The position numbers and the translations under genes are program-made. DNA of 62,338 bases, filler included, from Dugesia japonica (Eukaryota): the NCBI GenBank assembly GCA_001938525.1. It is 5 parts of 5 records of this genome, joined end to end, with 100 filler letters (N's around TTAATTAATTAA, not from the genome) between each part and the next. Parts side by side here need not be neighbours in the genome. Positions count along the whole stretch, not along the records: positions 48,177 to 62,338 come from MQRL01628998.1; 4 more parts are not named here. One strand, given 5' to 3'. Positions within the stretch are counted from its first letter, which is position 1, and each line of letters starts with the position of its first letter. This document shows, piece by piece, positions 19,626 to 62,338 of the stretch. The notes below the pieces were generated by a model that saw nothing but the letters and a program-made list of their open reading frames with translations, ran no database searches and was not told the DNA's origin.

Positions 19626-20041
19626 CTCTTTTTACTTTAACACCTATTTCTATTTTTGAACACTGTTCACATGTTAAACCGGCAGCTCCAACTATGTTTA
19701 TTTCAGCCTGTTCCAACTCCCTACCTATTTCTCTTTTTGTTTCTGCTAACTGATCCTATACTGCTCTTAAACAATAATAACATGATTTTATTAATCGACT
19801 CTTTATTAATGGTATTGTTGTTGATTTGATTTCATTACATAGTTTACATCGGTTTTCACTATCGTTTACGTTTGCTTTTGGGCTAGCAGTATTCATATTT
19901 ATACTTTGTCTTGACCTCAAAGGATATCTGTTTTCGTCATTAAAAATTTCCGGTTTTTTATTTTTTTGTTTTTGTTTCTTTATTTCTGTCGAAAGATCTA
20001 CTTGATCGATTTTTGGTTCTTCATCTGTTGCCGCCGCTAAC
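19626..20041 (-). repeat. Diverged duplicate of the gypsy post-integrase Cys-rich tail
   Basis: Closely similar to 20217-20581 with scattered substitutions; continues further with CKLC..CYYC..AAGLTCEQC. Confidence 0.85.
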
Positions 20042-20340
20042 NNNNNNNNNNNNNNNNNNNNNNNNNNNNNNNNNNNNNNNNNNNNNNNNNNAAGTATACA
20101 TAAACACTTTGACCTTGAAAAAAATTTCCCACCAATCACAATCAAGTATACATAAACACTTTGACGTTGAAAAAATTTGATCTTGAGGGGGAGGGGTGTT
20201 TATGTGCGCTAGGATCTATCTACTTGTTCCAACTCTCTACCCATTTCTCTTTTTGTTTCTACTAACTGATCATACACTGCTCTTAAACAATAATAACATG
20301 ATTTAATTAATCGACTCTTTATTAAAGGTTGTTAATTTTA

Positions 20341-21728
20341 TTAATTTTTATTAATTGTTGTTGATTTGATTTCATTACATAGTTTACATCGGTGTTCACA
20401 ATCGTTTACGTTCACTTTTGGTCTAGCAGTAATCATATTTATACTTTGTCTTGATCTCAAAAGATATCTGTTTTTGTCATTAGAAATTTCCGGTTTTTTA
20501 TTTTTTCGTTTTTGTTTCTTTATTTCAGTTGAAAGATCTACTTGATCGATTTTTGGTTCTTCATCCGTTGTTGCTGCTAACTTGCATCTTGACACCTGCA
20601 CAAATCTTGGTTTCTTTAGTAGATTCCCTACTTCTTTCACTTTTAAATTCGTAGTTGTGATATCCAATACTACATAGAGACCCTTATTTGGCCATTTTAA
20701 TTTGTTTGATGTGCCAACCTCTATTGATGGTGTATTTACCAAAATTAAATCTCCGATTTTAAATTCATGTGGTTTGGTATCTCTGTCATATAGTTCTTTG
20801 TAACTCACTTGAAAGAATTTTGCATTTGATTTTGCTAATTTCCACAAATCTTCCATATGTTCTTTAATACCAGTCACATAATCACTTTCTTCCATATACT
20901 GAAATATCGGTGGTTGATGTTCTAAATCAATCGGCATGTTGCATTCTCGTCCATACATCACTTAAAGGGTGATGCTCTTGTTGCCGGATGTACACCCATC
21001 CTATAAGCAAATAAACATAAGTTTAACTGTTTGNNNNNNNNNNNNNNNNNNNNNNNNNNNNNNNNNNNNNNNNNNNNNNNNNNTCTTGTTGCCGGATGTA
21101 CACCCATCCTATAAGCAAATAAACATAAGTTTAACTGTTTGTCCCAATTCCTTTGATAACTGGATACGTACGTCGACAGCATTCTGACTAGAGTTTGATT
21201 AAATCGTTCAGTCAGCCCATAAGTCTGCGGATGATACGCTGAAGTTCTCAATTTGTGAATGTTGAAGTAGCTTGTAATTTCCTTCATTAGCTCGCTAATA
21301 AAATGTTTTCCTTGATCCGTTAAGATCTTCTTTGGACCGTATCGACTGAATAATTTTTCTACCAACACCTTTGCGATTTTGTCTGCTTTTTGGTCTTTTA
21401 ACGCAAATGCTTCTGGATACTTTGATAGATAATCCACAACTGTTAATATATAAACTTTCCCATTATCTGTTTCTGGAAATGGACCCACAAAGTCCATTGC
21501 AATTATATCCATTCGAGCTAATGGTACTGGTATTGGTTGTAATGGTACCTTTGACTTCTTGCCAGTGCTCCTTCTTGCTGCACATACTTCATACCGATTT
21601 ACCCAATCTCTAACGTAAGTAGTAATATGCGGCCAATAATATTTCGCTCGCAATTTTGATTCCGTTTTCTTTGCAGACATGTGTCCACCCAATAATCCAT
21701 TGTGATACTGTTCCAATATTTTAGTCAA
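20341..21728 (-). pseudogene. Gypsy integrase (HHCC zinc finger, DDE core, GPY/F-like region)
   Basis: YHNGLLGGH...YYWP...(C>Y)EVC; IAMDFVGP, ILTDQG, SAYHPQTYGLTERFNQTL, HPATRASPF, KWPNKGLYVV. Confidence 0.95.
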
Positions 21729-21729
21729 T

Positions 21730-24700
21730 TTTATCCTTGATTATTTCAACAACCGGTAGTTTGCTCATGTCAAACTTCGCTACCGGTCTACTTTGGGTAA
21801 ATATTATGGGTGCTTGTTTAATCAAATATGCAATCGCGATTGCAATTCTTGTGGGTGATGGACTTCCTGCAATTAATCCATCTACTGCTTCTTTCGTTTC
21901 ACTTTTCAAAGTAACTTTTGTTCCTTTCAAAGCAGGTAATTTTGTAATTAACGGCTCCAAAATTGAAGCAATTTTTTCAGATTCTTCCGTTATTTTTGCA
22001 CTTCCAATCCACATCTTTAGTTCTGGATATAATTTTAATAAAATTAGATGTATTAGTTTTTCCGTTGTCATTTCTTCTGATTCCATTTGTTCTAACATTT
22101 CTTGTGATACAACTGTTAGTTGCTTATTTTGCCTCACGTTTCACTTTGTTACTTTTTCTTGATTTGAAATTCATTAACCGTTGATTCCTCTTGAGTTCCT
22201 ACATCTTGTATTCTTTTTTCTGTCACTTCGTCTGACACATTCAATTCATCTACCGTTTCATCTGCAATTGTTTGTAATTCGGGTAATATCGGCAGTTCTG
22301 CATCAATATCCACTTCTTTGGAATTCCAATTTAGAGATCCTTCAATCTTTTGACTTCTCATTTCTCTTTCTTTTTCAGGCTCTACTTGAGTTAACAAGAC
22401 CTCGTCGTTTTCTTGAGTTTCTGTTCCTTCATCTTCACTTTCTGTAGAAGATGAACTTATTGATACTCGTATTACTGTTTTTGCTGCAATTGTTGATTGA
22501 GTTGCCCAGTCTTTGGTAGGACGTTGTCCAGCCGTAAATCTGGGCTTTTCTGCTAATACGTTTGTAGTTAGTTTCTTCTTCAGCAATTCTTTACCCACCA
22601 CTGGTTGTATATATATTTTATTTGGATGTCTCACTTGCACATCCAATGTTCCAATGATATCTTTGTTTAATAATTCCGGATTAATAAAAAAAAGTGAATA
22701 TGGGAAATTAAATGGCAATTTATTTTTTAATTGATCCACTATTTCATAAGCCATTGTTTCCACTCGTGTTTCTAGGCCGGTAGGTTCAATTATTCTGAAA
22801 GTAAATTTGAGAAGCTTTTCTTCTTCCATCTCTCGATTTTGCCATTTAGTAATTATAATTTTAAATTGATTTGGCCTCCAATCACATTCTTCTTTTAATC
22901 CTGATATTTGATAAGTTAAATCTCTCTTAATGATAAAACTCTTTTAATGATAAATCACTGCTGATTAGTTGATCCAATAATTGTTGCACTTCTTGTTTTG
23001 GTAAATTCTCTTGTTTATTGATGGTTGCAAATTGTTGTATTAAACTTTGCATGTTTACAATATTGTATCTGTTTCTTGTTGTTGCTGCTGCTATTGACTC
23101 GCAAGGTTGGCTTATTGGACACATTTCTTCGCTCAATTGATCTTGTAATCTAGATCTTTGTTCAGGTAGTATTATCGCTACCGTTTCTCGTATATCAATA
23201 TTTATTTCCTCTCCATGTATCTGTAATCCCAATGGCACCTCCGGATTAATCTCACCGATAAACAACTGAATCGTTTTTCTACACAATGTTTCTCTTGGTC
23301 GTTTTTTAGTTTACGGATTCCTTTCTTGATCTTCTGCTAAAAACACGTAAACATCCATCATCGATCCAGGCCAAATACCTGAAACCTTTACTGATTTCTC
23401 CTCATTTTCCTCGTTGATCTCTTCTCCACAATATATAGCGATATCTTCCCTTTTAGTTTCTAAACCAATTGTCTTTCCTCTTGGCATTTGCTTGTTAATA
23501 TACTTCAGTATTTCATTTATTAATTTCTCCCAAGTTGTAGTTGTTTTAATCTTAAATTCCTTTTCTGATTCATCTTGGAAATATACTGTAACATTTACTG
23601 ATTGCTTTGGTATGTTTTTAGCATGTATTTCCACAAATGTATTAACTAATTCACAGAACATTTCTCCTCCAATTAATTTCAATTAATTTAATTGATTTAT
23701 TACTTCTTCTATCTTTAAATTTCGCATTTGTTTATAATTTTCCTTTATTACTATTCCTACCTTGGTTAATGCCAACCTATATGTTGTCCATGGTTCGATT
23801 TCTGTTGTTATTTCTGCTGTTGACTCAATTTTCTCATCTATTATATGCGTAAAGCAATCCATTCGATCTATTTCCGTCATAAATATTTCCCTCATTCTTG
23901 CACCAATTCTATGTATTGGCTGTATTCGAAATCTTTTTGACATTTCATCATCAAGTTCTAATGTCAATTTCGTTATTTCTTCTGGTCGTAATGTAAATTC
24001 AATTAGATGCTCATTAATCTCGTTTAATTTATCATTTTCTAATATCATATAATCACACGTTATTCTATATTTATTCAATTCCTTCTTCAATGGCAGTTCG
24101 CTTATTATATCTTTCAATTCTCTTATTGTTGTAGTTTGAAATTTCGTAATAGTTTTAGATGTCAAACTTGTTGTCGACCCTTTACCTTCGCTCATTACTG
24201 GATAAAAAATTGACACCCCAAAATCGGCTCCAAGAATTGTCTCTTTTATCAGATCTCGATAACTCTTTGCTATTTTTATCCATTTTCTTCTTTTTTCCCA
24301 ATTAATTTGAAAATGAAAACAAGCGTCGCATAATAAATTCATCATCTTCCAATAACTTTGTTTCGGAATAATCTCTTTCCAACTAATAGTAATTTTTACT
24401 AAATTATCCATTGCTTCTAAATATCGACTATTTTCTCACAATTCATCGTCACTCGTCACTAGTTGTTAACTCGATTCGCTATACATTTCTGTAGCTACGC
24501 TGTTTGCTTTCTTTTTATTTTTCTTTACTTTATTCAAAACTTTACTCGAAAACGCTCTCAACATACATATTTGGGCTTTAGGTCCTTCTTTATCTTCTGG
24601 CATTGAAATCGATGCTTGACTGTCGTAATTATTATATACCATAACGTTTTTTTATACTTCCCGTCTAATGATCTCATGATTTGCACTGTTGTTTGAAGAT

Positions 24701-26090
24701 GTAGATGTGACAGTACTGAGGCTTTAAATAAAAACAATCTCTCGCTTTCAAATAATATCACTTCAGTGGCACCATCAGGCTTCAATCCATAGCTGTAAAT
24801 GTGCTCATCTACCGCTTCTTTATTAACAATCCCAACTGGTGAACAAATTATATATTGTTCGAGTGGTTTTGGCCATTTTAGCTCATTTAATGCTTATAAT
24901 AATGCTTCCACGGTTGTATTCTTTAATGAAAATTTTTGAGGAATATTTTGGTATCCAAATCGATGATTGTATTTAGATATTTGTTCTTCCATCAAATAAG
25001 CCATATTCATACAATCATGTGCGGGTTTTATCGCTTCCATCCTACTAATTTTATAATCATTCGTAGTTGACTCTTCTAAAATTTCTTTTTCATATTCATC
25101 GATTATATACTTCCATTGTAATTTAGTTGTTACATCTATGTGTCCTGGCTCTGTTAACTCAACGATATGGTTCATTATCGACCAATACGTTTTTCGATCA
25201 ATCTCATATTTTCTTTTTCTGGTTCTTCTCATTATTGTATCGACATATTCTCTCATTTGTGATTGACATTTTATTGATGTTTTCATCTTTTCGTTCGTCA
25301 CAAGTTGATCCATCGTCATTTCCGTTCCCTGTTTTGTATTTTCGTCATTTTTTACTGAGTTCTTTGATGCTTTTGCTTTTTCTATCTTTTTCTATAATTA
25401 CCCTTTTAGCTAGTTTCTTTTGTCTGTCCAATAAAGTTTGTACTCTCATCGTATGCTTAAAAAATGTCTTTTCCAAAGATTTAATTATTTCATTTATTGT
25501 TCGATACTCAAAATGCATAAACNNNNNNNNNNNNNNNNNNNNNNNNNNNNNNNNNNNNNNNNNNNNNNNNNNNNNNNNNNNNNNNNNNNNNNNNNNNNNN
25601 NNNNACCGAAATGTGTTCTTTAAGATTATCCTGATCAATCACTCTTGATGATGAACATAGTACATATTCGTATAATGGTTTCGGCCACTGCAGTTCATTT
25701 ATCGCTGTTATCAACCCTTTGACTGTTGGTGCTTTAATTTCAATTTTTCTCATTATATTCTGATATCCACATGGTATGGATTTAGTTTCATCATTACTTG
25801 TTGCGTATATGTATCTCTCAATTGACGGTCCCGCCACTTTTGGATCGCCTGTAATCGATTTTTTCAACGGCTTCATTATAATGACTTTGTAATCCTCGGG
25901 ATAAGTTTCTGTCATCAATTCCACTTCATACTTTTCCGCTTGAGTCTTCCAATTCATTTTGGTAACTGCATCTACATCCTTTGATTCCACGAGTTCAATT
26001 AAATGATTNATTATTTTAAAATATGCTTTTCGCTTAATTACATCTCTAAAGTCTTCAACAAGTTCTAGTTTTTCTTCTATCTGTCGTTGA
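21730..26090 (-). pseudogene. Non-canonical Gag-Pol insert: three ~200-aa diverged tandem repeats plus SUMO/ubiquitin-like modules
   Basis: Same-strand ORFs linked by single stops or frameshifts; repeated RK.YW.IMNH..EL..W...YE and TT...L...I.EL...K.L..Y.IC...EHI motifs; SUMO-like VNVTVYFQDESEKEFKIKTTT at 23341-23598. Confidence 0.65.
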
Positions 26091-27844
26091 ATTGCGGGAT
26101 GATTTTCTAACGACTTATCGTCTAAAATCTTCTTGGAACGTATCATATTAATTTGTCCAGCATTAGAATTCTTCATTCCTCTTGCTCTCAATCTATCCTG
26201 AGCTATTTGTTGTTCTTCCAATTGTTGTCGCAGATACTCTTGCTCTTGNNNNNNNNNNNNNNNNNNNNNNNNNNNNNNNNNNNNNNNNNNTTGTAACATA
26301 TTTATTTGATGCTGAGTTTTGGCTCTGCTACTATTTATTTCCTGCTTTAATGCTTCATTTTGCTGTCTCATTTTCTCAATTGTAGGATTTAAATTTGGTT
26401 TTGCATTAAAGTTATTATAATTTGATTTATTACCGTCATTTCTGAAGCAATTTCTACTAATATCTCCTGACTTATTACATATATAACATACCGGTGGCTT
26501 GTTCTGAAAACAAGTTTCTCCATTATGCCCGGGTTTCTGACAAGTTGTACAAATTTTTATTGTTTTTTCTGGCGGTCTAGATTTGCACTCTCTTGCTCGA
26601 TGTCTAATTTTTCCACAATTATAACAAGTCATATTTGATGATTGCCAGTTCACTTGTTTGTTGTTATTATTATTCGACTTAAAATTATTCGTTTGTTCTC
26701 TCGTCTTCTCAGGTGATAGTGACTTCAATAATGGCTGGGCTCTTGGGATGAAATCAGATACCTTCACAACATCTTTAGTCTGTTCATTTTGCTCTTCTAT
26801 TTGAAACACTTTACCCACTTTTGGTTGACGAACGTCCACATTATGACATACTCTTGCCGAATTTATGGCCAACTCTACGGTTTGCGGTTGAGTTAAATGC
26901 ACATGTCTCTTTACGTCCGCATTTCTCAACCATTTTATAAATGCTCCAATAATAACTCCTTCATTAATATTATCTCCCATAGCTATTTTCCCAAGTCTTC
27001 GCAATTCAGCCGCAAATGAAATGATTCAACTTTATGCTGTCGTCTGTTCATAAAATCTTGCATTTCCCGACCTTGTAATGCAGATGCTTTAAAAATATCT
27101 AATAACAATGTTTTAGCTTCTTCCCAAGTTTTCACTTCTTTATCTTTCTCAGTGGCTTTATCCCAATAAATAGTTTTATTAGCTCCAACTAAATACTAGT
27201 GGTAAACGTTCTACTGCTGTTTCATCGCTCCAACGACATGCGTTGATATGAATTTCATAGTTTGTGATGAAATCGAGTATTTTATCTGGATCTCCGTCAT
27301 ATTTTTCACTACTGAAATCAGTTCTCCATTCTTTACGTTTATCGTCCATATCCGATGTATGTTGTCTACTATTTAACGACATTTTATTTAATTCTTTGAT
27401 TTGCTCTTGATCACTTCAATCTTCTGCTTCGCTCTCTGATTCCGAATTTGTTTGAAAATGCGACACAGGTACTGCGATATTTGCTTTATCGGCTATTGAA
27501 TTATCACTATATTCGCTATCTGTTATATTCGCTTCTACTATCTGATTCTGATTTTCAATTTTTGACTCTGTTTCTATATTTTCTCTTGATTCTAAGGATT
27601 TCCTTGTTATTTTTAAAGGAAAGCAGTTAGGTGATTGATTTGTTTCTGAGGATATTGGCTTTTTAGATGTCCTTGATTCCTTTCTTGTAAGTGATGATGC
27701 TCTTTGGGACTTTGCTTGGTGCTCTTTTCTACTTCCAACAATAGATCTCGTATAATATCTGGGCTTTTCCGAATCCTCAATGGCTATCGTAGTATAACAA
27801 GTGTTCTCTTTAATCTGTAATATAATAATATGCTGCCCTTTTCC
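26090..27844 (-). pseudogene. Gypsy Gag with capsid-like domain, three CCHC zinc knuckles and coiled coil
   Basis: EKYDGDPDKILDFITNYE...WSDETAVERLP; CYNCGKIRHRAREC, CTTCQKPGHNGETC, CYICNKSGDISRNC. Confidence 0.92.
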
Positions 27845-31377: not shown

Positions 31378-31827
31378 AACTTTAATATTTTCATAACTGT
31401 TCAACACAAATAAAAATAATCTATTTCATTAATAACAAAAGAAGAAATTTCATGAAGACCTACACAAAAATCCAATAACCCTTTCTTATTTCACTATAAG
31501 TAAACTCGGATATCCTTTGGTTCTTCTCATCATAATTCAAAAATTCAATTAATTATCATCGTAAATTTTATCGTAAGNNNNNNNNNNNNNNNNNNNNNNN
31601 NNNNNNNNNNNNNNNNNNNNNNNNNNNAACTTTAATATTTTCATAACTGTTCAACACAAATAAAAATAATCTATTTCATTAATAACAAAAGAAGAAATTT
31701 CTTGAAGATCTACACAAAAATCCCATAACCCTTTCTTATTTCACTATTAGTACACTCGGATATCCTTTGGTTCTTCACATCATAATTCAAAAATTCAATT
31801 AATTATCATCGTAAATTTTATCGTAAG
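31378..31827. repeat. ~200-bp direct duplication flanking an N gap
   Basis: 31378-31577 vs 31628-31827 near-identical, few substitutions. Confidence 0.85.
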
Positions 31828-32029
31828 ATTTATTTGGTTTATTATTATTTTATTTCAAAGGGTTTATTTCTCTCATCTTTAATTTTAATTAATTAAATTA
31901 AGATTCATTTTCATTTTATCTAATTCTCTATTCAAAATTTTATTTTTCTAATTTTAATACTAAAATGTTTTTCGTGATTGATTTCATCTCGCATTGTAAA
32001 TTATAGATAAAATCTAATAATGATTTAGT

Positions 32030-32385
32030 GTGACAGTGTAATTCATTATCATAAAATCTACCTAAATTTTTTCATTATCTAAATCAGTAATTCCATAANT
32101 AAAAGGTTTTGTATTATAAACTTGAGTTACTACAAATACTTAATTTGTCCATTTAGCTGTAAATTCTTTTTCGAATTTGTATTTATATTTAAAGATTCTA
32201 ACTCGATATCCAATTTTAAATTTCTGTTTAAAACTAAAGTTATCATTTTCATGATTATGATCTTTGATTATTTCTTTTATTTTATCTGGATTTTCACTAG
32301 CTTCTTTTGGAGTTGTTTTTATACTGGAGTGAATTGTATTATTATAATCATTTACAATTTTATCCAACAAGATTTTATTTATTAA
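32030..32385 (-). pseudogene. Maverick-type integrase C-terminal fragment
   Basis: LDKIVNDYNNTIHSSIKTTP...KFKIGYRVRIFKYK..FEKEFTAKWT...TKPF.YGITDLDNE..LGRFYDNEL. Confidence 0.85.
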
Positions 32386-32752
32386 TTTTTTTTAAAATCA
32401 ACTCAAAAAATTTTTTAATTAATACAGAAAAGTCTTAGATATTTTAGATATACTATACTTAGAATTTTTTAATTTTAAATTTTTGTATTTTTTTTTTAAA
32501 ATTGTAATATTTTTAAAATAATTTTCAAAAAAATACATCTAACATCTAAATCTCCTTGATTTGTGTCTGGCAACTAACCTGATAATTCACCATAAATATT
32601 TTTATAAGTTGAACTAGTTGTTACAAAATTTAACATTGTAGATGAAATTTCTGGTTATTCTGCGTTAGCTCATTCTGTATTATTTCACTCTTCATTAGCG
32701 TTAGCGAATTACTAACCATTTTATTAATAAAATTTTGCAATACCTTAACTGT

Positions 32753-32833: not shown

Positions 32834-32885
32834 TGTTGGGGTTTTACTCTAGGTGGGTTGAATTCTTGTATGATTCTTCTTAGGT
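32834..32885 (-). repeat. LTR terminus fragment, same family as the LTR ending at 57494
   Basis: tgttggggttttactctaggtgggttgaattcttgtatgatt matches the reverse complement of 57450-57494. Confidence 0.7.
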
Positions 32886-33861
32886 CTGAGTGCTTTGCTT
32901 TCTTTTCTGACGACCATTTTTTTTTAACTTTGAGTATACTTATTGCCACCCTTATTTCACCCCAACGATATTAATAAAATATTAATAATAAAAAACTACT
33001 GTTTTATTCTGATATTATATTTTTTCTTTTAGGATTTTATTTTTATTCTTTGTTTGTGTTAGCCCAATTTGTCTTTCTAACAGTTCAAGTAGTATGTAAA
33101 TGGTTTTTGGGTATCATCTTTCAGACAGGAAGAGAAGAACGTGAAAATGAAATAGTGAAGAAAGTACTCATAAAAAATTAAAAGCCTTGAAGCCCAACAG
33201 AGTTAAGCTTTTCTGTAATTTAATTCGGATGAATGATTTGAGTTTGTTGAACAGGTATTATCTTATCAAAAAGACAAGATCTGGAAATATAAACAGAAGA
33301 TCAGATCAGAAAATATATTTAAATTTAATGTAGAGATGCCACCAATTTATTCTTGCTGATCTTTGCATCTTTCAATGATAAAATTTAGATTAGTATTTTT
33401 GAGTTATAGATAAAACTTCAAACTTTGCACGATTATTATTGTTAGAAAAATATTATTACCATTATACTCTCAAGGTGTTTAAAATGTGTACTTACAAATT
33501 ATTTATATTCAAAAAGTGACCAAGTTCTAAATACAATAAATAATAAAATCTCGGAAATGCAGACAAAAACTGTCTATCAATGATTCAATTAATTATTTAA
33601 TATCACTTGTTATTTGTTTTAATAATATTAAAAATTCTTAATAATTATAAAAAATATTTAAGTTGTTTTACTTGTCATTTATTTGAAAGTTTATTAATTT
33701 TCTTTTACCGAACGGAAAGTAATTTCAGAAGTAAATTTGTATTTGCTTTACAAATCAATGTTAGACTTCAAATAAATAAAAAGACTTCAGTAATTAATTT
33801 TCATGGAAATAATTTTAGAAGTTTCATAAAAATTATTTTGTTAATTAAATTAATTGTTATT

Positions 33862-39495: not shown

Positions 39496-39849
39496 GAATT
39501 ATATTAATTTCGATAAATTTTGAGTTACTTGATATTTTCGAAAAATGTTACCAAATCTAGGAAGACAGCTGTATATATTCGTTATTAAGCATTTTTGCTT
39601 AGGTGATTTTTTAACTTTACAGTCACTTTTACCTACTGAGTTAAATAATACTAAATTCGAGTCCATTGCCGTTAGTTGCGCACATATGTTTGAGTGCTAA
39701 AATCTGAACTTTGAGATTTATTCACCACAAAATTTTATTTATTTCATTTCTACAAATAAATAAGGTTTGGAGTAAAGGTTACAAAGGTCCATAGAGCGGT
39801 AAGGTTTACTAAAGCACACATTTATAAAAATTAAATTGAAACATAAAAT

Positions 39850-39960
39850 TCATTAGGAGCAGAATGTAAAACAGAGCTTGAGAAAAATTACTACAAACTA
39901 TTGAACAACAGTTTGTATCGGAAATCGATAGAAAATGTAAAGAAAAGGAAGAATTTGCGA
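39850..39960 (+). mobile_element. Maverick protein-primed DNA polymerase B fragment (motif B)
   Basis: ECKTELEKNYYKLLNNSLYRKSIENVKKRKN (compare KLxNNSxYGKxxEN). Confidence 0.8.
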
Positions 39961-41303
39961 TCTTCTTGCGAAGAATTATTTTGGTAATATAATATATAGA
40001 ATATACAATTATTTAAAATAGAATGAATGAAAAAAAAATTTGTGTGCCGCGAGAAAATTTATATTTTAGTGTGCCGCAGACTAAAAAAGTTTGCGAGACA
40101 CTGATTTAAATTCCGGTGACCTTTAAAAATAAATTTTGATTTCATTTCGCAAGTATGAACTTGTTCCGATAAATTTAGATTTAAAAAAAGAACACGAACA
40201 AACATGCTCAGTATCAAATAATCGTACTACAGAAGCGGCAATGAATATCAAATTGTAAAATGCCAGTAAATACACACCAACAATGAATTATCAACGGCCG
40301 TAGTACGCATGATTCAAATCTGAAAAAAGCAAATACTAACTGAGAACAATATAGACACACATTGTAAAAAGTAATGATACGTGGCTATGTTTAAATTTGA
40401 AGAAACAAACAATTTAAACTGAATTTAGAAATATGAAACTCGAAGAAAGATGAAAGACGGCGATATACAAAAAGATTTAAAAAACTATTTAAGCAACAAT
40501 AGAATTACTTAAAAAAAAACAAAACTAAATAACTCTGAAAAACTTTAATTCGTTATTTTGAGAACTATTTCGGTTTAATCTCTTAAAAAGANNNNNNNNN
40601 NNNNNNNNNNNNNNNNNNNNNNNNNNNNNNNNNNNNNNNNNTAGAAAATGTAAAGAAAAGGAAGAATTTGCGATCTTCTTGCGAAGAATTATTTTGGTAA
40701 TATAATATATAGAATGGACAATTATTTAAAATAGAATGAATGAAAAAAAATTTGTGTGCCGCGAAAAAATTTATATTTTAGTGTGCCGCAGACTAAAAAA
40801 GTTTGCGAGACACTGATTTATATTTCGGTGACCTTTAAAAATAAATTTTGATTTCATTTCGCAAGTATGAACTTGTTCCGATAAATTTAGATTTAAAAAA
40901 AGAACACGAACAAACATGCTCAGTATCAAATAATCGTACTACAGAAGCGACAATGAATATCAAATTGTAAAATGCCAGTAAATACACACCAACAATGAAT
41001 TATAAACGGCCGTAGTACGCATGATTCAAATATGAAAAAAGCAAATACTAACTGAGAACAATATAGACACACATTGTAAAAAGTAATGATACGTGGCTAT
41101 GTTTAAATTTGAAGAAACAAACAATTTAAACTGAATTTAGAAATATGAAACCCGAAGAAAGATGAAAGACAGCGATATACAAAAAGATTTAAAAAACTAT
41201 TTAAGCAACAATAGAATTACTTAAAAAACAACAAAACTAAATAACTCTGAAAAACTTTAATTCGTTATTTTGAGAACTATTTCGGTTTAATCTCTTAAAA
41301 AGA
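39929..41303. repeat. ~660-bp direct duplication flanking an N gap; each copy includes a hAT/MITE-like terminus
   Basis: 39929-40591 vs 40642-41303 with a few substitutions; aaaagtttgcgagacactg is the reverse complement of a CAGTGTyTCxCAAAC-type TIR, preceded by repeated gtgtgccgc. Confidence 0.85.

Positions 41304-48176: not shown

Positions 48177-48236
<60 letters not shown>
48177..48236. repeat. (AAT)n microsatellite
   Basis: Direct reading. Confidence 0.95.
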
Positions 48237-48554
48237 TGTTAGCTGAGTTTGGAATACTCATCGGATCATTAATATCAGAACTCGAATTCATTACAAAATT
48301 TATTAAAACAAAAATTATACATATAAATTTGTTTTTCTCAAACAAATTTAAAACTTCATATTCAAAACGGAAAACCTCAAATATCTGCATCTGCAAAACA
48401 TTTTAAAAATTTTTCTCATGTCAAATTTTAAAAATACATTTTTTAAAAATACATATTTTATCTTATTTTAATTTATCCAAAATTTTTTTAACGTCAAATT
48501 TAAAATAACAATAAATTCCAACTCAAAATACCAAAATTTAATCTGCTTTAAAAA

Positions 48555-50560
48555 CTATCTTCCATCCCCTTTTTAGGAATTTTTTGATCTTCTCTACGTT
48601 TCTTTCAAGACTTTTTCCCTTTGTATCTTTCAGGATGTAACGTCTGTCGTGAATCTTCGTCTTGATCTTATAGGGTCCTTCATAACGATCTTGGTTCTGG
48701 TTTCGACTTTCACTAAGACCTCATCACCGACATCGAATTGTTTTTTGGTTAGTTTTTCTTCATCTTGCTCTTTGTGCTCTTTTTGAGAATCAGTTTCGTA
48801 CCATTTTTCTATGTTTATTTTCTTCACAAATACGATTTCAGCAGAGCTTTCCCGACAACCATTTGTTTGGTAGCATTCAAAGCAAATTCTATTTCTGGCT
48901 CTATATGATCACTTTATTCATCATTTCCTGGAACTTACCTGGTGCAGCTGTAATTCCAAAAGGCATTCTTTTGAAATAAAATTGCCCTTCTTTGGTGGAA
49001 AAAGCCGTCTTCTCTTGAGAATCCTCAATGAGTTCCACTTGGTAATATGCATTTTCCTAGTCTATTGGGCTAAAATACTGTGTATTTTCCAAAGCATCCG
49101 GCATTTCATCCATGTTTGGCACAGGAAAAACTTGTCTTTCTGTTATTGCATTGAGCTGTTTAAAATCTAATCATAATCTTATATCTTTTTTTTCCTTTTT
49201 CTAAACGCAGATTAATGGCGTTAAAATTATTACTCCGGATGATACCATTATCATACAGATTCTTGATGGCCTCTTCAATTTTCTCTTGTAGATTCATTGG
49301 TTGACGATATGGTTTTATGTGGATTTGACCTCCGTTAGTGATTATTCGAAGCTTCGTTGAATGTGTGCATCCAATGTCCCAATTATCCGCCATAAATACA
49401 TCTTTATTATTTTGAATAATTGCCTTTAATCTATGATTTTTGTTAATTTCTAGAATCTCTATTTCATGTATCAATCGTTCACCCGTAATTATCTGCCTTC
49501 TAAATTTTGCCTCGATGTTGCAAACAAATCTTTCTCGACGATTATTCATATATCTACCCTGCACTTTTTTTGAAGATGATACCCAAAAGTATTCTGAGAT
49601 TCCACTCCACCAATTAGATCTGATATCAATTTCTCTACTTTTATAAACGTTACTTCCTTGCACACCTCTGAAACTACAACTTCAACACGTATCTTTCCAA
49701 TCGTATCCAATGAGCTGTTATTCGTGCAATGAAATCGTTCCTTGCTTTCCTCTAACATTGTTTCTCTGAGTCTATTAAATCATGTCATATTTATTACATT
49801 TATTCTTGCTCCTGTATCCAACAAACAATCAAACTGTTTATCCTAGATCATCACTGAAATGCTAGGTCTCCTTTGCATTTTATCATACAAAATTTCTACA
49901 TTCTGTTTCTCTTCAATTATTCCTATCACTTCTGCTTTGTTAACTTCCTCATCATTGAAACTTTATCGTTTTAGGAATATATAAACTTTTTTCTCACTTT
50001 ACTCGTCTCATCCCATTTCTCGGCCTCTTGAGGCTATTCAAATGGTATCTCGTTTAATGAATAGCTCAGATCAACTGCTTTACTAATGGCGTCCTGCCTT
50101 TTGGGTATTCTTTTCTTGGATTTTATTTTCTATTATGCTCTAAGAAAATCTGTATTCATTCTCATCATAAAATTCTTTTCGAATAGCATGAATTGGTTTG
50201 GTCCGACTCCAATCATTTGTTTTTTGTCCGCTTTTAGAATTGTATATTCTGTCTTCTAGTCTAGGTATATTAATGTTCGAATAACATTCTTCTGCTCTGT
50301 GACCTGGTCTTTTACATCTACCACATACAATTTCTGTGCACATCCTTCTAACATGACCAATCTTATCACACACAAAAGATTTTGGTGGTTTCTTGTCGAG
50401 GAAATTTTTACTTAAATGCCCTTTCTTGTGACAAGTCCAACATTCCACATGAGAATTTTTTGGACACTATCTTTTTGTATGCCCATAACTCTGACATGTC
50501 TAACACTGTGGTTTTGTTCTTTTAGTAATTCTCTCAATATTTTGTCTTCTTTCTCTGAAA
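48555..50560 (-). mobile_element. Internally deleted Ty3/gypsy element: zinc knuckles, protease, RT N-half, integrase tail, PPT
   Basis: CWTCHKKGH / CGRCKRPGHRAEEC; FDCLLDTGARINV; KPYRQP..LQEKIEEAIK; RMPFGITAAPGKFQ; FDVGDEVLVK; PPT AAAAAGGGGATGGAAGA at ~48558-48575. Confidence 0.9.
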
Positions 50561-50800
50561 CGTTTTTATTTATTATTTATTAAAATTAATTTTAACATTT
50601 ATTTATTTCATTAATTCTCATTTAAAAATTTCCGACAAAATTTCAACTGCTTTTAAAATTTTATTTATTAAAATTAATTTGATCCCATTGAAAACATTTT
50701 ATTATTTACTTAAATTTTTATTAAAAAATTTACGACAAAATCTCAGCTGACTTTCAAAAGTTTATTTATTAAAAAGTTAAACTTTATTATTCAATAATTT

Positions 50801-51007
50801 TGTTGGGTTACTAGGCTTTTGATGTTAACTATATTCACTCCTGCGTATCTAAATTTTGAATGCTATATGGTTTTTTAAAAGAAAAGATTGTCTGGGGGAT
50901 GATACCTAGTAACCACAGATACTTGTGATGTCTTCTCCTACATCACGATCCCCATTCCCGAGTTCAGCGAGACTACGCGGTATCTCGTCTTTGACAGAAA
51001 GTTCTGC
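50801..51007 (-). ncRNA. Structured LTR R/U5 RNA motif, copy B
   Basis: AAGAC-GAGA/UCUC hairpin-GCUGAAC...GGGGAU/AUCCCC stem, GUGAUGU/ACAUCAC hairpin; internal GGUUACUAGG is perfectly complementary to terminal CCUAGUAACC; ends in CCCAACA. Confidence 0.55.
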
Positions 51008-51196
51008 TTCAAATTCCATTCTGCTATATTTCTATATGCTTTTATCTCGTTCTATCCCAACAATTTTAATTTATCCTTAAACCAATATTTCTTTATTTAA
51101 ATTTTTCATCAATAATTTAAATCTCTCTTTTAAACAAAAGATTTTAAAAATAAGATTATCAATCACACAAAAATTTCAACTTGCTTTTAAAAACTG

Positions 51197-51500
51197 CTCA
51201 CATGGTTCATTAGCCTTTAATTTTATAGTTTCCTCCTTTATTCTAATTGTTGTTACTTTGTTCATTTGGACAGCTGTACATTCTTTAAATACTTTTGACA
51301 CAGTTTCTCGTAACTCTTCCATATCATATTCGTTTTTCAAATAATTTATGACTTTTCCGTGCCTGCGTGCACCAATAATTTATGGATTTCTTTTACCATT
51401 TGAATTTTCTTTTCTAATGGGATCCATATTTTGCCGTCTTTTGTTTTTATTATTTCTTCTATTAATAGAAACTTTTTATATCTTCCATTTTTTATTTCAT
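51197..51500 (-). mobile_element. Gypsy integrase zinc-finger fragment
   Basis: HKLLVHAG..KVINYLKNEYDMEELRETVSKVFKECTAVQMNK. Confidence 0.6.
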
Positions 51501-53777: not shown

Positions 53778-56207
53778 TATAATTAAATAAAACTTGATAC
53801 ATTTTTATATGAATAAAATAAAAGTTAACGCTTTTTTATTAAAATTAAATAATAGGTATCATTTTTTTAAAATAAAATTTGTTACTTATTAATAAAAATT
53901 ATTTAAAATTTACTTGTTAAAAAAACTATTTACTTATTAGTTTTTATATAATTTCATAAGGTATTTATGCAATAATTTTAAGTTATTTATTTGGAAAAGT
54001 TCCACGCTTTTATGATTTTTTAAAGATAAGTTCTATTTTAAATAATTTAGCACCTCTTCGATTATTTTTTATTATATTTTAAAATAATAATATACATAGA
54101 CTCCCCTCTATCTTTATTTGGATTATATATTTTATAATAAAAATATGCAAAGACCTCTGAATATATTATCATAGAAAATCAAATATTTAATCAATTATTA
54201 GATTTTCCTTTCTTAGTTTTTTTAAATCTTTCATATTGAATTTTAGAATACCCTGAGAATATAAACTCTCCAAGCATAGATATATAGATCATCATGATCA
54301 TTTAAGAATATCTATTCAAAAATAAATCAGTATTGCAACACATATGCATCAAGCATGCACCAGAAAAGCACGTGCCAATATAATTTTAGACTCCCTGGTA
54401 CTTTAAAATATCAAAACTATCTAAAAACCAACTCAAACGCAACACCATCACCTGGCTCAACTCACCATTTTTCCCATAATATATAAATTTCCCAAAATCC
54501 AACAAAAACTCTTTACATCACATTCCTTTTTAACAAAAATGCTTGATAACTCATCACTGCAGTGCCATTCTGACCTAAGTCTGTAAACCTCAAGAGCATT
54601 TTAGCTCATAACTATCTTTAACAACCAATAGACCTATTTCGAGGGCCCAGTCAAATCAACCACAGAAACCCAAAAATCGATACCCCACACATCCACACAG
54701 TCAATCTGTTGTTAATTTCGTTTTTTCAATATACAATGACACAAACACACACCAGCTCTATATTTTTTGCACGCCAATGTGCACCTGCACTTTGCACGCA
54801 TAATTGCAACCAAAAATTTTTTTAAAAAAATTTTAAAAAAACTAAAACAATATTTAAAATTCCCGCAAAACTACTTGTCCAATATTAATTAAAACAAAAC
54901 AAATGAAAATATTTCAAATCATATCCAATCAAAAAAATTTTAATCAATCTATCATACCGGAATCAATAGTCAATCAGATCGGAAATCTAAATAACGATCC
55001 GCAGGGTTCTTGAATTAACCAATCAGATTAGTGGTGTCATGCTAGTCTATCTACATACTATTTATTCATGTTGAAAATTAATAATTTAATATTGTTTAAA
55101 ATAATTATTTATAACAAAGCATATATTTGAAAACTATTAATAATACTAATGATTGCTAATGTTAGGGTGAAACACTTGAGATTAAGAAGTAGGCCAGCAA
55201 TTGGGTGCACCTGAAATTTGAAAGGATGTCACAAGAAAGAAGACAAAGAACGCAGAAAAAGGAGGGAATTAGACCAGTTACCGAAAGGAATAATTGAAGA
55301 GGAAACCAAAATAACGAAACTAAATATGGAAAATGATCCGTAACTTAGTGAGTTACAAAATAGAAAAGAAATGTTGGAAGAGAAAAAGCGGGCTGAGAAA
55401 ACAGAGAAAGGAAGATTGATGGCGGAAGAGGGTAATTAATTTAATGAGAGAAGGAGAGTCGAGGGAAATAATCAACTTACAGAAAATGAATTGAATGAAT
55501 TAATTAGTAAAAGAAAACAGTAAATTGAGTTGATTTCGAGGCGGAAAACAGAGTGGTGAACCTAGAATTGATATTATGGAAGAGAATAAAATGAATAATT
55601 TGTTTATTTGAATGAAATAAATCGAACAATTTGGAATGGATTGTTTTTGAATGAAAAATGATTGTTTCGTGAAAAGTGGCCGAAATGACGACTTCCCATG
55701 GTGAGGGGATTGGTAATTAAGAGATTCTGGTCAAGAGGAAATCGGAGATCTTGAAAATCTGAGATCTTGAAAATCTGAGTTGGGGAATCGTTATGAGTCT
55801 CGGAAAAGGGATGCAGGGGTTTGAGGGTGGACCAATGGAGTCGAAATCTAGGGGTATCAACCAATAAAGATAACGCGTGTGACCATCTGGCCAATAAAAG
55901 CGCCAAGAATTTATATCCACCAATAAAATAAACGAGGGTGTAGAAAAAACTGGTATAAATACCGATGTAATTTTCACAAAAATATACAATTTTTTCAAGG
56001 AAATACGGAAATTAAAACGAAATTAACACAAAAGGTGATTATTTATGCGATTCGATTGATGATTCAACGAATTCCGACTAGATTGCTAAGACTTATTATT
56101 ATGGAGAAGCTCTGGACTCACTATTGGATAGGAATGAAATGGATGTTATTGTTGAGTTTATAAGTCACAAATAACATGCAAAACATAACAACATGCAAAA
56201 CAAAACA

Positions 56208-56262
56208 CAACAGAATATCGGAACAAATCCTCAAACAGAATATCAGAACAAATCCTCAAACC
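56208..56262. repeat. 25-bp tandem duplication
   Basis: acagaatatc(g/a)gaacaaatcctcaa x2. Confidence 0.85.
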
Positions 56263-57259
56263 AAAAAAGCAAAGCAATCAAATCCCAAACAGAGCCAACC
56301 AATTTGATCTATATCTGACAATTATTTAATTGAATCGAACAATTTATTTTATTTCATGTTGTTTATCTGAACTATTAAATCAAACAGTTTATAATTCATG
56401 AATTAAATAATGTATTGGTTTTATTTTTAATTCTGAATTTATTTTTATTTTTTAGTTTTATTTTGTTTTATTTTTATTTTTGGAAAAAAACAATTTTATT
56501 TTATTTTATTTTGGAAAAACAATTTAAATTTTGTACAGTTATTTTGAAAAAAGCAATTTATTTTTTGTAAAAAAATATTTGAAAAATAAATTTTTATTGT
56601 AAAATGCTGAGATTTTTATTGTAGGTGTATCAGACCTACCCATGTAAGATTAGTATAAATACTAATCAGTTTTAGTGTAAGAGCAGACATTTAAATTACA
56701 GAAGGCTCCGAACTCTAAGTGAGGCAGTACTTCTGGTAATTAAAATTAGCTCATAAGGTTTAAGGTGATCATTGTGTAACGATCAATTATATATCCCAAA
56801 ATAATAAAAGTATTTAAAAAGGTGAATCTTATTTATTTACATAAGGAACCCCACATATAACCTTATTTATAATTTTGATAATATATTACAACTATATAGT
56901 ATTGTATTAACATATATTTGAAAACAAATAAAGAATTTTAACACCCGTAAAATCTTATTTATATTTGTACGAACCATAAAATCTTTTTGTTGAGTTCGAA
57001 TACCCAACATTATGATCTTGTGCTTGATCCGGTTTGGGATTCAGGACACGTTAGTTTTGTTAATTATGTTAATTGTTAGTTTATTATACCCCAAGTGAAA
57101 TTTAAATCATATAATATATTTTTCACTTATAAATTCTTTTGTTTTCCGAATTGATAAATAGCTATTATAATTATAATCAAATATAAAGTGACCGAAGTAA
57201 GGAATACCCCACAAAACGGAGAATTGTCGGTGGAAAATTGTAAAAGCTAATTGTGATTA

Positions 57260-57494
57260 GTAAACTAAGCGAGTATCATGTAAAACGAACCCGAACCAAG
57301 GGAATGCGAGTCTGTACTCGAGTTACGAGTCAGCGGCTTCATTCCGAAGATCTGGATATTTTGGGGAACACCAGATTCAAATTCATCGCGAGATTTTACG
57401 AGATCAGTTACCCTAGACTTAATTTTATAGATGGTTCGACCCCCCTAGATTTAATCATATAAGAAATCAGTCTACCTAGGGTAAAACCCCAACA
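57260..57494 (+). mobile_element. 3' end of an LTR with a hairpin-rich U5, abutting the second TBP-like gene
   Basis: Ends in CCCCAACA; hairpins ggaatg/cattcc and atctgg/ccagat; ttaccctag (57408-57416) complementary to terminal ctagggtaa (57476-57484). Confidence 0.6.
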
Positions 57495-57940
57495 CTAATA
57501 TTAATTATAAAGGGCAAGTATCTCAAGAAATCACTAGTAAAATGAAATTTCCTATCGATAAAGCATCACAAATAGTTGATAAGTGGAAAGTATACAATTA
57601 TTTTATTTAAATCAGGGAATTGTAGAATCATGGGATGCAAGAAACCAATAGAAATGAAGCGTTTACAATATTATATTAAAAACACTCAGTAACAATCTTT
57701 AAATATTGTAGTCAATTTGAAACAATCAGTCAATTTGCATACATTAGCAATAATAACAAAGTGTATGTATGAACCTAAATAATTTCAAGTATTGAAACTT
57801 CCTTAATACACTCCTACATAAGTTAATGTATTTGCTATTGGAAAGTTGTAATACTTGGTTTCAAGAATTTATATTATCAGAATCAAGTTTATAATATAAT
57901 ATTAGATTTAAACAGTTTAATCGAGAAAATACAATACTAG
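57495..57940 (+). pseudogene. Compact TBP-like gene, copy 2 (5' end cut by an LTR; several stops and frameshifts)
   Basis: NINYKGQVSQEITSKMKFPIDK...TIILFKSGNCRIMGCKKP...QSLNIVVNLKQSVNL...CMYEPK*FQVL.....VNVFAIGK.VILGFKNLYYQ; collinear with copy 1. Confidence 0.82.
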
Positions 57941-60900
57941 TGCAACACAAATGAATGAAAACAATAAATAATGTGTTATTAAATAAATCTTGTCACGTAA
58001 AATTAACAAAGTAGTTTATAGCTTAATTAAAACTAAAAACAAAATAGAGTTTTAAAAAAATTTATTAATAAAACTCTTGCAGTTTTTATCTTCCAAATAA
58101 AGATAATTGTACTGTTATATCTTATGAATCCTTTGAATACTACAATTATCAAGTACTTTTTATCAAACGTATAGCTATTTTCATTCGATTCCTAATCATT
58201 TATAAATGGTATATCATCTATTTTAATATATTATAAATTCTTGATAAAAGATTGTTAATTATTGCCTTGTCTTCTGTATTCATTTCCAATATTTGCATAT
58301 TAAATGAATATATTTTTAGTTTAACCAGATCCTAAATTAAAATGATAACAGTAATAATAGTTATAAATTTTAATTGGAATGCATTAATAATCGACCTTAG
58401 GAAGAAATCTATCTTTAACTGATAAAAATCTCAAGGAATTTGAGAATAAATTACAATTATCATAACATTTTCCTTGTCGCGTGAATATTTCAGACTTTTT
58501 TAATTCCCAAATTGGTTTTGTAACATTATCTATTTATCAATATCCTATTATATCCACTGTGATTATAGATTTGTTGATGATTATTTTCTTTGAATCAATG
58601 TAAGGGCTATCCTTTATTGACATTGTATTGTCAAATTTTGATAGAATATCTTTAATAGCCATTTGATTAGTTATGCTGTTTGTTAAATACAAGCTGTATT
58701 TAGATTTCAGTACATTAACTTGTTCCTAAATGAATAAGTGCAATTATAAAAGAAAGTATTACTTGAAACGAATAAGTGATTGGTTTGTCGAAGTAGGACT
58801 TCATCAATTCAATATCAATATTTGTTGCACTATCTTTCGATTCTTGCATTTTCATTAATGAAATATTGTAAATTGTTTTAATTTATATGGTAACTAGTTA
58901 CGTGTGCACATGATTTGTAATACCTTAGATTATGTACTGTGTGATTAGTAATTTTTTGTTAAACCATCAACCCTATGATATGAAATTTTTTTATTTCTAT
59001 GCAGGTGTGTATAATTAATTGATTTTAAATAATATAAACGAAGATTTAATTGTTCAACTTATTGACCATGAATATTGATAAATTTTAGGTAGTATGGTTG
59101 AGTAAATCGATATTAATTATTCAGTTTTCATGGAACCAGTTAAATTTGAGAAAGAAGTTAACTTGGCTGATATTTTACTGGGAAAATTAGCGATTTATGA
59201 AAAAACTATTGATCAAAGCAATAACATGTAGTATTTAATTAATTATTATTTCAATAGTTAAATGCATTTTTAGTGTGTCAATACAAACTAGTACAATATC
59301 ATCCAACTTGAATGTGTTAAGATTAAATATTTATTTAAATAAATCTTGTTATATCAATAATCTCTATATATTCCCACTATAACTACGCATGTTTTGAGAA
59401 AAGTACAGATTTTTTAATTCTTCCTGAGCAATTTTTCGACAATTTCGAACCGAAATCAAAAGAAATTTCTTACTAGCCCAATGAAATCATTAACCACTTT
59501 ACCTGAGAGGATGAGGAGGCTAAGTGCGCCACTATCAATATTCTAGTTTATATTTTCAATCTTGCTTCCTAAAATTCCATTATCGAAGAAAACTAAAATT
59601 ATTTTTTCAAAATGAATACTTTCAATTTCAAAGTTTATAATTTTGAGTACTCGTTGGATTATCAACATCAAAATTCAACTCCATAAAATTTATTTCAAAT
59701 AAAATCTATAAGATAACTATTTGTTTATTCAAAAAAATAATAACCCATGCTTCAATTGGGAATTATTTTCCAATAAATTTAATATTTATTTCTTAAATTT
59801 TAAAATAAACAACCATTCACAATTAAAATATTTATTTTTAATTTCCTAAACTTTTAAATAAATAAAATATTTTAATTGATCTTTTACACATAATTTTTTT
59901 ACTAAACATTAATTTAATTTTCTTTACTTTCTTGATTAATTTGTGACTTCAATTTTTAATTAAAAGATTAAAAAAATTCGCTTCAAAACACACTCACAGT
60001 TCATATTTCAGTCTTGTAAATTTTCCATTACATTTTATGGTTTATCGAATTTTTTTAATTATTTAAAAGTCCTTAGATTTTCGTGTTCATCGTATTTCTT
60101 TAAATTCGATTCAATTATTTTTGAATTTTTAACTTTATTCTTATTTAAGATTTCTTTTGCCATTTAAATGATTTAAATTTTATTTTTGAATTTTACTTTA
60201 TTTGAAGGACTTATTTTCTTCGAATCTCTCTGTTCCACTTTTTTTACAAATTCCTAATTTTTAAACATTCATCTTTTTTCTTAAAAATATCAACAATTTT
60301 TGATTAAATTTCTAGAGAATTTTAATTGTTGGTATCATGTTTTCAATATCTCGATCCTTTATTAAAAATAACTTTTATAAAATCTTCAGTGATTTCATTG
60401 CTTTAAAATTTTTCTATATTGATAATATTTTCAGATTTTTTGAAAATATTATTAATTTTTATAATTTCAATTTTTCTATGATTTTTTAGCATATTTTAAC
60501 CCATCACTTTTTGATTTACAATTTTCTATTACAAAGTTGAGCGAATTACTCTCAAATTGTCATCATTACTATGTTATCATTGGAAGCTTATTTTTAAAAG
60601 CAATTTTCGCTACGAAGCAAGAATTGATATTTATTATTATTATTAAATCTAAAATAATTACAGATTTTCTTTGAGTATTTTATTTGAGTACACGAATAAA
60701 GAAATTATTGCGAAACATTGTAAAAATATTACTTTCCAAATACGCTTTTTTTATATTTACTTTTGTTCAATTGATAGGTACTCTGACTGTTTTAAAATAT
60801 ATGTTTAGTTAAAAATACGATAGTACATAAAATTAATTGCGTTTTTTTTTTAACAGAAAACTCAATTAATGTTAATTTGTATAATAGCATATTGTGTAAT

Positions 60901-62338
60901 ATTTAAGTAAAAAAATAAATATAGATATGTATACATATATAGATATACATAGTTATTTCTAACTGTTTTTCTGAATTAGTAATCTTATTCGAATAAAATG
61001 CGCGTGTATTCAGGTAAGACTATAATTTGTTATTATCGAAAATTTTTGTCATACAAAGCATTTAATGAAAGCCCGACAATCTTTTAACTACCTTTTCTTT
61101 TTGTCGTGGTGATAATTCTAGTTTGTAATTTGGGTGAAGTACATTGTGAGTGTTTTGAAAAGCGAGTTGAAATTTTTGTGTGATTGGTTAAAAGATTTAA
61201 ATTTTAGATGAAAAATTTAAATAACGACTATTTGCTTTTTAAATTTGGAATGAAAATTAAGTAATAAATTAAAATTCTCGAATAAATGAATACTTGGTTT
61301 TAAATTTTAAGACGACGATTGAATAATAAAGTAAAATTTTTAAATAAATTTTAAATAATTTAAAAAGATGATCACCAATTAAAACACGGGATTTTAATTT
61401 GTTTGAAGAAACCAATAATTATGCTATAATTTTTTTTTTGAATAAATTTTGGTATTGGTGATCCGATGAGTACTCCAAACTCATCTAACATACAAAAAAA
61501 TTTTGGAAAAATATTTTTAAAATTTTTTTTAAAAAATTGCGAGAAAATGAAGCATTTTTTAATAGTAGTTCTTTAGGTAATTGATAGATAGATTTTAATT
61601 GTCTATCGAACGATATATAAGATTCAATTCAAAATGGCGGGCGTAGGAGGTTTTATTTCTTAGATTTTTAATAACTTTCTACGGCCATCTTTAATTTAAT
61701 TTTTATATTTAATTAAATTTATTAACAAATAATTTATTTTCTATAATGCATTAAATAATTGTATTATTTCCATTAATTAATAAAAATTATTTACAAAAAA
61801 ATCCAAACTTGTATCGTGAAACCGTGGAAAAAGAAATCTCCTTTTCTTTCCTTTTCGTATCACGACACTCCTAATCAAGAAACCTACATCATATAAAACC
61901 TAATAATAGTTTTTAAAACGTAATTAACAATTTAATAAAAATGTTGAAAAATTTATAATAAAATTAAAAATCATTAACAATTTTTTTTTTAGATATTTTT
62001 CTTAAAATTTTACCTTATTACATAAAAATAAATTCGAATTGGCAGCACAACTAAATTTACGAATTTTTCTCTTTGATATAAATAAATCTAAATGCATATA
62101 AATAATAACAAATGAAATTTTAATGAAAAAAATAATCGATAAGTTATATTTAACGAAATCGTTTTTGAAATGTATCGTCTTCCAATAAATCTTTACTATC
62201 TGCTTTAAAATCTGACTCAACCCATTTTCTTTTAAGAAATGCCAGTGCCAACCCAATTTGTTTTCCTGTGATGAAGTATTATTTATTTATTCGGTCAAAA
62301 TATTAATTATTGTATTAATTATATTTGATAATTAATTA

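Follow-up and report, generated by a model that had tools for sequence, protein, structure and literature searches.

A dead, amplified gene for a reduced TATA-binding protein in Dugesia japonica, probably derived from a Maverick/Polinton lineage

Does a decayed gene for a TATA-binding protein (TBP), found next to retroelement sequence in the genome of Dugesia japonica, descend from the host's own factor, or was it cargo of a mobile element, and if so of which kind? The gene (copy 2) lies at 57495–57940 (+) of the stretch of DNA analysed here, which comprises 62,338 nucleotides in five joined parts of assembly GCA_001938525.1 (hereafter the window), is AT-rich and yielded no Rfam match. Copy 2 is recognised as TBP-like both by Pfam (E 2.2e-7, middle frame) and by an HMM of its own family (iE 3e-29), ends with a stop codon at 57938–57940, and is a pseudogene carrying four in-frame stops (57690, 57780, 57804 and 57819) and two frameshifts (near 57576–57587 and 57837–57847). 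It matches P0005, a relative that is naturally intact, at 115 of 139 mapped residues. We conclude that copy 2 is probably a dead copy of a gene for a TBP of ~150 residues (hereafter mini-TBP) that belonged to a Maverick/Polinton lineage and was multiplied in this genome, and that the protein, where its element is intact, likely serves that element as a promoter factor for the late genes; we assign this joint reading a probability of about 0.65. Copy 2 itself is a dead remnant, of value for what it tells of selection on the gene and of its large amplification in the genome.

The first-pass annotation had taken copy 2 to be truncated at its 5' end, where an LTR end abuts it. An LTR-type end is indeed present at 57494, but the gene is split rather than truncated: its first codons are found on the far side of a 2335-bp LTR-like insertion (55160–57494, no strand assigned), at 55149–55159 (+), where a start codon at 55149 opens the Met-Ile-Ala (55149–55157) also encoded by P0005. 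The insertion has the TG...CA ends, the short terminal inverted repeats and the target duplication (4 bp, solo LTRs having 4–6 bp) of a solo LTR; the duplication is a direct repeat at 55156–55159 and 57495–57498, and such a duplication together with an LTR start is expected by chance within 10 kb with a value of only 0.0005. Since the first codons stand to the left of the insertion and the 4-bp repeat flanks it, copy 2 was split by a later event. We consider the insertion to be a solo LTR or a non-coding derivative of one, which read depth indicates to be itself high-copy. A shorter candidate, a 243-bp LTR with a 5-bp duplication, was rejected because the 2335-bp element has complementary ends that match those of an element at 32.9 kb. 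The latter, 134 bp long (32834–32967, −), shares its terminal inverted ends with the 2.3-kb insertion and is flanked by a 4-bp duplication of its own. The window also holds two decayed Gypsy-like retroelements, at 20341–27025 (−) and about 48200–51300 (−), with gag zinc knuckle, integrase and RT-like ORFs (labels based on motifs), and sequences at 48237–48280 and 51079–51194 recur inverted at 61152–61490.

A second copy of the gene (copy 1) lies at 16837–17268 (−) and is likewise a pseudogene (Pfam TBP E 4.2e-6; family HMM iE 3e-27). The sequence motifs by which the two had been recognised as relatives are present in both, namely CRIMGCKKP, QSL.IVVN, VNVF..GK and V.ILG.KNLY.Q, the last two lying across a frameshift in copy 2, as well as N.NY.G.VSQE.T (TNINYKGQVSQEIT versus TNVNYRGEVSQEVT). 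Copy 1 stands head-to-head with a decayed Maverick A32-type packaging ATPase that spans an assembly gap (17413–18086, +; 74% identical to the ATPase of metagenome locus L014, E 4e-44; HMM iE 4e-34). There follow a conserved small Maverick ORF in the interval between ATPase and integrase (18279–18497, +; E 1e-16 to locus L004; HMM iE 2e-20) and then an internally deleted integrase remnant and the start of a penton-like ORF (18736–19314, +; iE 4e-22 and, for the penton-like part, 0.002). The names penton-like, DEDD-like, X and small ORF, here and below, are provisional ones that we gave from gene position. Packaging ATPase and rve integrase thus accompany the gene at copy 1, but not at copy 2, and neither pPolB nor protease is found beside either window copy. 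Further Maverick remnants in the window are the C-terminal part of an integrase of another family (31963–32415, −) and a pPolB fragment (39730–39966, +). An ORF at 15220–15537 (+), ~1.3 kb from the Maverick of copy 1, contains an LTGDN motif and looks like one exon of a heavy-metal P-type ATPase gene of the host, in an intron of which this Maverick may sit.

The description of the second copy as residing on an unrelated scaffold finds no support, because near-identical duplicated sequence flanks three of the five 50-N gaps, which gives these the look of gaps inside one scaffold. The duplicated stretches around the 50-N gaps (31378–31827, 39929–41303 and 19709–20581; 87–98%) are likely assembly artefacts.

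Was the gene maintained before it decayed, and is it as abundant as two copies in one window had been taken to suggest? Of 432 aligned bases, 285 (66%) are identical between the copies, as are 52% of their residues; for the 5' flanks the figure is 39 of 114 bases. Aligned codon by codon without repair and with codons beside frameshifts omitted (126 of 132 columns being free of stops), they yield dN 0.30, dS 1.55 and dN/dS 0.195 over 126 codons, a ratio that is approximate since dS is near saturation and that post-insertion decay biases upwards. The corresponding pN/pS is 0.38 (bootstrap 0.27–0.51). Shifted-frame controls give 1.22 and 0.95. The predicted outcome, dN/dS well below 1 and hence purifying selection, is what we obtained. 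Intact ORFs from metagenomes agree: among 47 of them the median dN/dS is 0.20 and the maximum 0.72, as calculated from the 35 of 1081 pairs that are unsaturated (pS 0.05–0.6), these pairs not being mutually independent.

As for abundance, summed read depth across the copy 2 gene reaches 14,000–52,000, a measure that does not equal copy number, versus a depth of 7–16 for contigs identical to the locus (three sets). All three sets come from this organism; two of them, X1 and X3, are probably DNA, and the kind of X4 is unrecorded. A given difference is carried by up to 58 distinct contigs for copy 2 and 117 for copy 1 among the matches listed, so that there are dozens to more than 100 distinct variants per site, from which we infer hundreds to thousands of gene copies. 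The gene is highly multicopy in DNA contigs of this organism, in line with the high copy number that the first-pass annotation had suggested. At copy 1, depth is similar over the TBP and the ATPase bins. In contigs that derive from other copies, TBP is linked to ATPase over deletions, one from 16959 to 17567 in all three runs and others from 17163 to 17724 and from 17222 to 17531. RNA reads on the gene are sparse, mostly <90% alike and from both strands (9 of 1224 at ≥99% in one comparison, 0 of 73 at ≥95% in a second); given their small number, dissimilarity and strand distribution, they show no mRNA of mini-TBP, and expression of either window copy was not seen in them. No RNA run carrying copy 2 is listed.

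In protein databases, 73 of 78 candidate relatives are Pfam-TBP proteins of 78–161 aa, nearly all of ~145–160 aa, and the 50% library gave 261 matches with ordinary TBPs among them; the ESM Atlas returned no result for the mini-TBP gene. Relatives in metagenome contigs were recovered with an alignment of 62 sequences as query, which matched 143 stretches, the best 80 loci being retained; queries of a single frame or of two sequences found nothing in viral contigs, proteins >161 aa or metagenome contigs. Within the best 80 of 143, a core Maverick gene is present in 4 of 31 loci shorter than 2 kb, in 15 of 26 measuring 2–4 kb and in 20 of 23 of at least 4 kb; an ATPase is found in 27 of these best 80, an rve integrase in 19, a protease in 11 and pPolB in 8. 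Pfam detects DNA_pol_B_2 in L056 and L066, and Peptidase_C5 in L049. Most of the Maverick set, that is, ATPase, rve integrase, capsid-like ORFs and pPolB, is carried by L004, L013, L056, L061 and L066, with a protease also in L004 and L013. The capsid-like ORF (~410 aa), a candidate for the double jelly-roll major capsid protein, is found at the expected position; three of ten members have weak Pfam capsid matches, and no match to a PDB sequence was obtained. The mini-TBP gene itself occupies several positions and orientations in the relatives. A quick tree sets the mini-TBPs apart, with an SH-aLRT of 100, from ten rows of full-length TBP-like proteins, and groups the nearest relatives of the window copies together. 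The presence of Maverick genes both at copy 1 and in the metagenome relatives ties the gene to Mavericks. dN/dS, copy number and this linkage, in the window as in the relatives, support the proposal that the gene was a stable multicopy cargo under purifying selection; rather than being limited to several element subfamilies of one genome, it is older and more widespread, marking a whole lineage of Mavericks.

A frequent neighbour in the relatives is an SSB-like gene, which adjoins mini-TBP in 22 of the best 80 of 143 loci (L004:1788–2135 and 21 others). Its product, of ~115 aa, is a predicted single-strand binding protein of the T7 gp2.5/Enc34/ASFV CP312R type, the family model having a pLDDT of 92 and matching 5odk with Z 8.4. 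Several of these genes are preceded by intron-like DNA that ends just 5' of the ORF.

It is this neighbour that bears on whether copy 2 as well lay within a Maverick. On its 3' side, at 58072–58403 (−), a weak match in two collinear pieces points to a decayed SSB-like gene with the T7 gp2.5/Enc34-type OB fold: the pieces cover HMM positions 7–71 and 69–124 with scores of 13.6 and 7.6, whereas 39 control stretches of 1.5 kb elsewhere in the window reached 3.0 at most. A possible second, more decayed copy at 58486–58790 (−; iE 0.24 and 4, score 2.8) is not significant alone. Only the family HMM matched between 58.0 and 59.4 kb, where Pfam, PHROG, tblastn and protein databases gave no match and hhalign on one frame was negative. 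Read depth remains high without a break from the copy 2 gene to about 59.4 kb. The SSB-like match and the continuous depth suggest, at the level of sequence, a Maverick context for copy 2. One might instead suppose that copy 2 lies outside any Maverick remnant and represents a host TBP pseudogene or cargo of an LTR retroelement. Such a view could appeal to the flanks of copy 2, in which neither tblastn nor family HMMs found ATPase, integrase, capsid or polymerase remnants, and to the lack of Maverick termini: terminal inverted repeats and 6-bp target duplications, looked for at both copies as the first-pass annotation had proposed, were not found there, nor were terminal repeats in five long loci, all of these being fragments. 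It is nonetheless highly improbable, considering that (i) the gene is interrupted by the LTR-like element, which is bordered by a target duplication and hence arrived later than the gene, (ii) the closest relatives of copy 2 fall, in the quick tree, into the mini-TBP clade, apart from full-length TBPs, and (iii) the SSB-like remnant lies 3' of the gene. Past the SSB-like remnants, the stretch 58800–59420 is high-copy, and tblastn, HMMs and protein databases recognised no product in it.

What kind of TBP did these elements encode? Both window copies pass the cut-off of Pfam PF00352 (31.1 and 26.9 bits versus 22.9), and homology to TBP is also indicated by PDB matches. An AlphaFold model of P0005 (pLDDT 94.8) is a two-lobed saddle with a complete C-lobe that aligns with human and yeast TBP over 146–148 residues at Z about 13 (human: Z 13.0, 146 of 151 aligned, r.m.s.d. 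2.7). The predicted fold is that of a two-lobed TBP lacking helix H2: the model has no helix between residues 19 and 83, so that the canonical N-lobe H2 with its basic regulatory patch is not seen, and the alignment of mini-TBPs with full-length TBPs shows a gap at the H2 position. Retained in all 62 of 62 sequences are the stirrup E96-P97-E98-x-F100 (E96, P97, E98 and F100 each invariant), with its canonical glutamates, and the L5.1 Phe of both lobes (F41 and F116). Equally invariant in 62 of 62, and non-canonical, are R47, M49, C112 and N114; the residues opposite R47 and M49 in full-length TBPs are Val and Thr/Leu. The positions of R47 and M49 face, we assume, the minor groove. According to the accessible part of Ravarani et al. 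2020 (PMC7221094), the stirrup glutamates contact TFIIB, the basic patch of H2 serves TFIIA, TAF1, Brf1 and Mot1, and L5.1 Phe has a role as well; most viral TBPs are described there as having diverged TFIIB-binding glutamates and as being supplied with a viral TFIIB. No TFIIB was found in 21 + 63 neighbouring ORFs scanned in these incomplete elements, the 63 having been hand-picked from 86 unassigned ORFs, plus some from shorter loci.

The upstream regions of the relatives' genes share a word that the rebuilt N-lobe might read. Unbiased k-mer counting over 198 de-replicated upstream regions finds ATAAACA 79 times versus 6.6 expected. ORFs were left out if they lacked a Met start, were matched late or had <100 nt upstream. 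Scored within 90 nt upstream, where shuffles give <1 per class, the extended word YATAAACR precedes 23 of 24 ATPase, 17 of 17 small-ORF, 9 of 10 MCP, 17 of 21 DEDD-like and 10 of 12 PLA2 genes, these being counts over the same loci from which the word was derived, many of which share samples. In these five groups it occurs on the sense strand only. The signal weakens for penton-like (6/13), integrase (6/11), protease (3/5) and X (1/6) genes, and the word is found before 3 of 20 SSB-like, 0 of 2 PolB and 0 of 57 TBP genes. Before the TBP genes stands instead the canonical TATAWAWR, in 26 of 57 cases (shuffle mean 7.7, maximum 15). The spacing is narrow, 65 of 90 YATAAACR matches lying 30–49 nt before the ATG. 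In the window, TATAAACA, an instance of the mini-TBP family's putative late-promoter word, lies at 18238–18245 (+), 41 nt upstream of the small ORF's start codon; the decayed ATPase of the window has no exact match before it, and across the window as a whole the word is not enriched (20 versus 21 expected). The loci compared all carrying a TBP, YATAAACR may be general to Mavericks.

The N-lobe of TBP reads the 3' half of the TATA box, and the rebuilt N-lobe of mini-TBP would fit a factor adapted to the C of YATAAACR. The proposed sequence of events is as follows: the mini-TBP gene would be transcribed early by host TBP from its canonical TATA box; mini-TBP would then bind YATAAACR, with the conserved C-lobe on the TATA half and the altered N-lobe, where the invariant Arg47 and Met49 replace Val and Thr, on the C-containing half; host TFIIB and RNA polymerase II would be recruited via the invariant E-P-E stirrup; and the loss of H2 might free the protein from control by TAF1, Mot1 and TFIIA.

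A protein of the same origin could also be a decoy or repressor, non-productive on TFIIB or on TATA boxes and damping host or early transcription, with host TBP itself reading YATAAACR. The title of structure 1qn3 reports host TBP crystallised on a C(−25) TATA variant, which we take to equal TATAAACG, and host TBP might on that account read the word. One of the four intercalating Phe positions, moreover, appears to be lost, position 25, which we take to be this site, being mostly Lys. In the accessible text of PMC4402545, cellular TBP copes with C:G in the TATA box through Hoogsteen pairing, which avoids a leucine clash, so that, with 1qn3, C at that position is seen to be tolerated in crystals; and H2, the surface for TFIIA, TAF1 and Brf1 (PMC7221094, in part), is missing from the model. 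We regard such a decoy as unlikely, for late genes share the non-canonical word and the TBP gene favours the canonical one, the one element with a canonical TBP (L083, below) has the canonical word, and the invariant novel residues on the DNA face suggest a specific site.

The adjoining SSB-like gene in those 22 loci of the best 80 of 143 raises another idea, namely that the TBP fold was reused together with SSB for replication or packaging, bending DNA or marking genome ends, and that YATAAACR, which resembles AATAAA, is a polyadenylation-like or unrelated signal. This appears improbable: the TFIIB stirrup is invariant, and the word stands at a constant spacing ahead of the next ATG, in many cases within the preceding coding sequence. 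We accordingly retain the late promoter factor as the preferred reading. Its most specific form, a Maverick lineage with a minimal, re-specified TBP and a promoter code of its own, in which TFIIB and Pol II would be kept, H2 dropped and YATAAACR read via the N-lobe Arg, we regard as evenly balanced between right and wrong. If true, a transposon of 15–20 kb would run a two-step cascade of early and late genes, and L083, with its full TBP and canonical boxes, would stand for the state before reduction.

Mavericks and viral TBP-like factors as such are already known. The relatives resemble Mavericks, Polintons and adintoviruses in carrying pPolB, rve integrase, A32 ATPase, adenovirus-type protease, PLA2 and capsid-like ORFs. 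In the accessible part of the account by Starrett et al. 2021 (PMC8502044), however, TBP is named in a figure legend only, and no TBP family, reduced N-lobe or promoter word is described; its supplement gave no TBP match. With cellular and archaeal TBPs (PF00352; 7egb_P, 1mp9, 1tbp), mini-TBP shares the predicted saddle (Z 12–13), the L5.1 Phe of both lobes and an E-P-E-L-F-P stirrup, but it is ~25 residues shorter, lacks H2, is about 20–27% identical, has invariant Arg and Met for Val and Thr in the N-lobe, and is changed at Leu and Asn positions of the C-lobe. Like the TBP-like factors of large dsDNA viruses, as far as the accessible text of PMC7221094 describes them, it is encoded by a virus and has a TBP fold whose N-lobe is divergent (BFVD matches); unlike them, it has both glutamates invariant, goes without a TFIIB in the 84 ORFs scanned, no element being complete, and is encoded, at ~150 aa, in a small integrating element. 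It may also be likened to herpesvirus ORF24/BcRF1, which are reported to be TBP mimics acting at viral late promoters with host Pol II. We found no account of the mini-TBP family or of YATAAACR in the literature, where figures, supplements or RepBase annotations may mention them; in the accessible text of 10.1101/2023.08.22.554363, PMC11131425 and 10.64898/2026.06.19.733378, a term search returned neither TBP nor TATA.

A dedicated TBP and a matching word make the timing of capsid and packaging genes in Mavericks/Polintons directly testable, and such a pair would argue for a real viral cycle in these elements. Mini-TBP also constitutes a natural experiment in the minimisation of TBP and in changed TATA specificity, and might be of use as an orthogonal promoter factor.

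The element L083 (L083:546–3351) is a Maverick-like fragment with ATPase and small ORF in a bacterial MAG, where it is probably misbinned. Its TBP, encoded head-to-head with the ATPase, is canonical and full-length with two lobes, and TATAAAAG precedes both the ATPase and the small ORF, a single case; its TBP possibly represents the unreduced state or an independent capture. Other cargo genes of these Mavericks encode a ubiquitin-conjugating E2 (L013:225–719), a dual-specificity phosphatase (L012:4008–4316), a KilA-N protein (L066:7145–8002), a RING finger (L047:1710–2168) and an LRR protein (L030:1918–3327).
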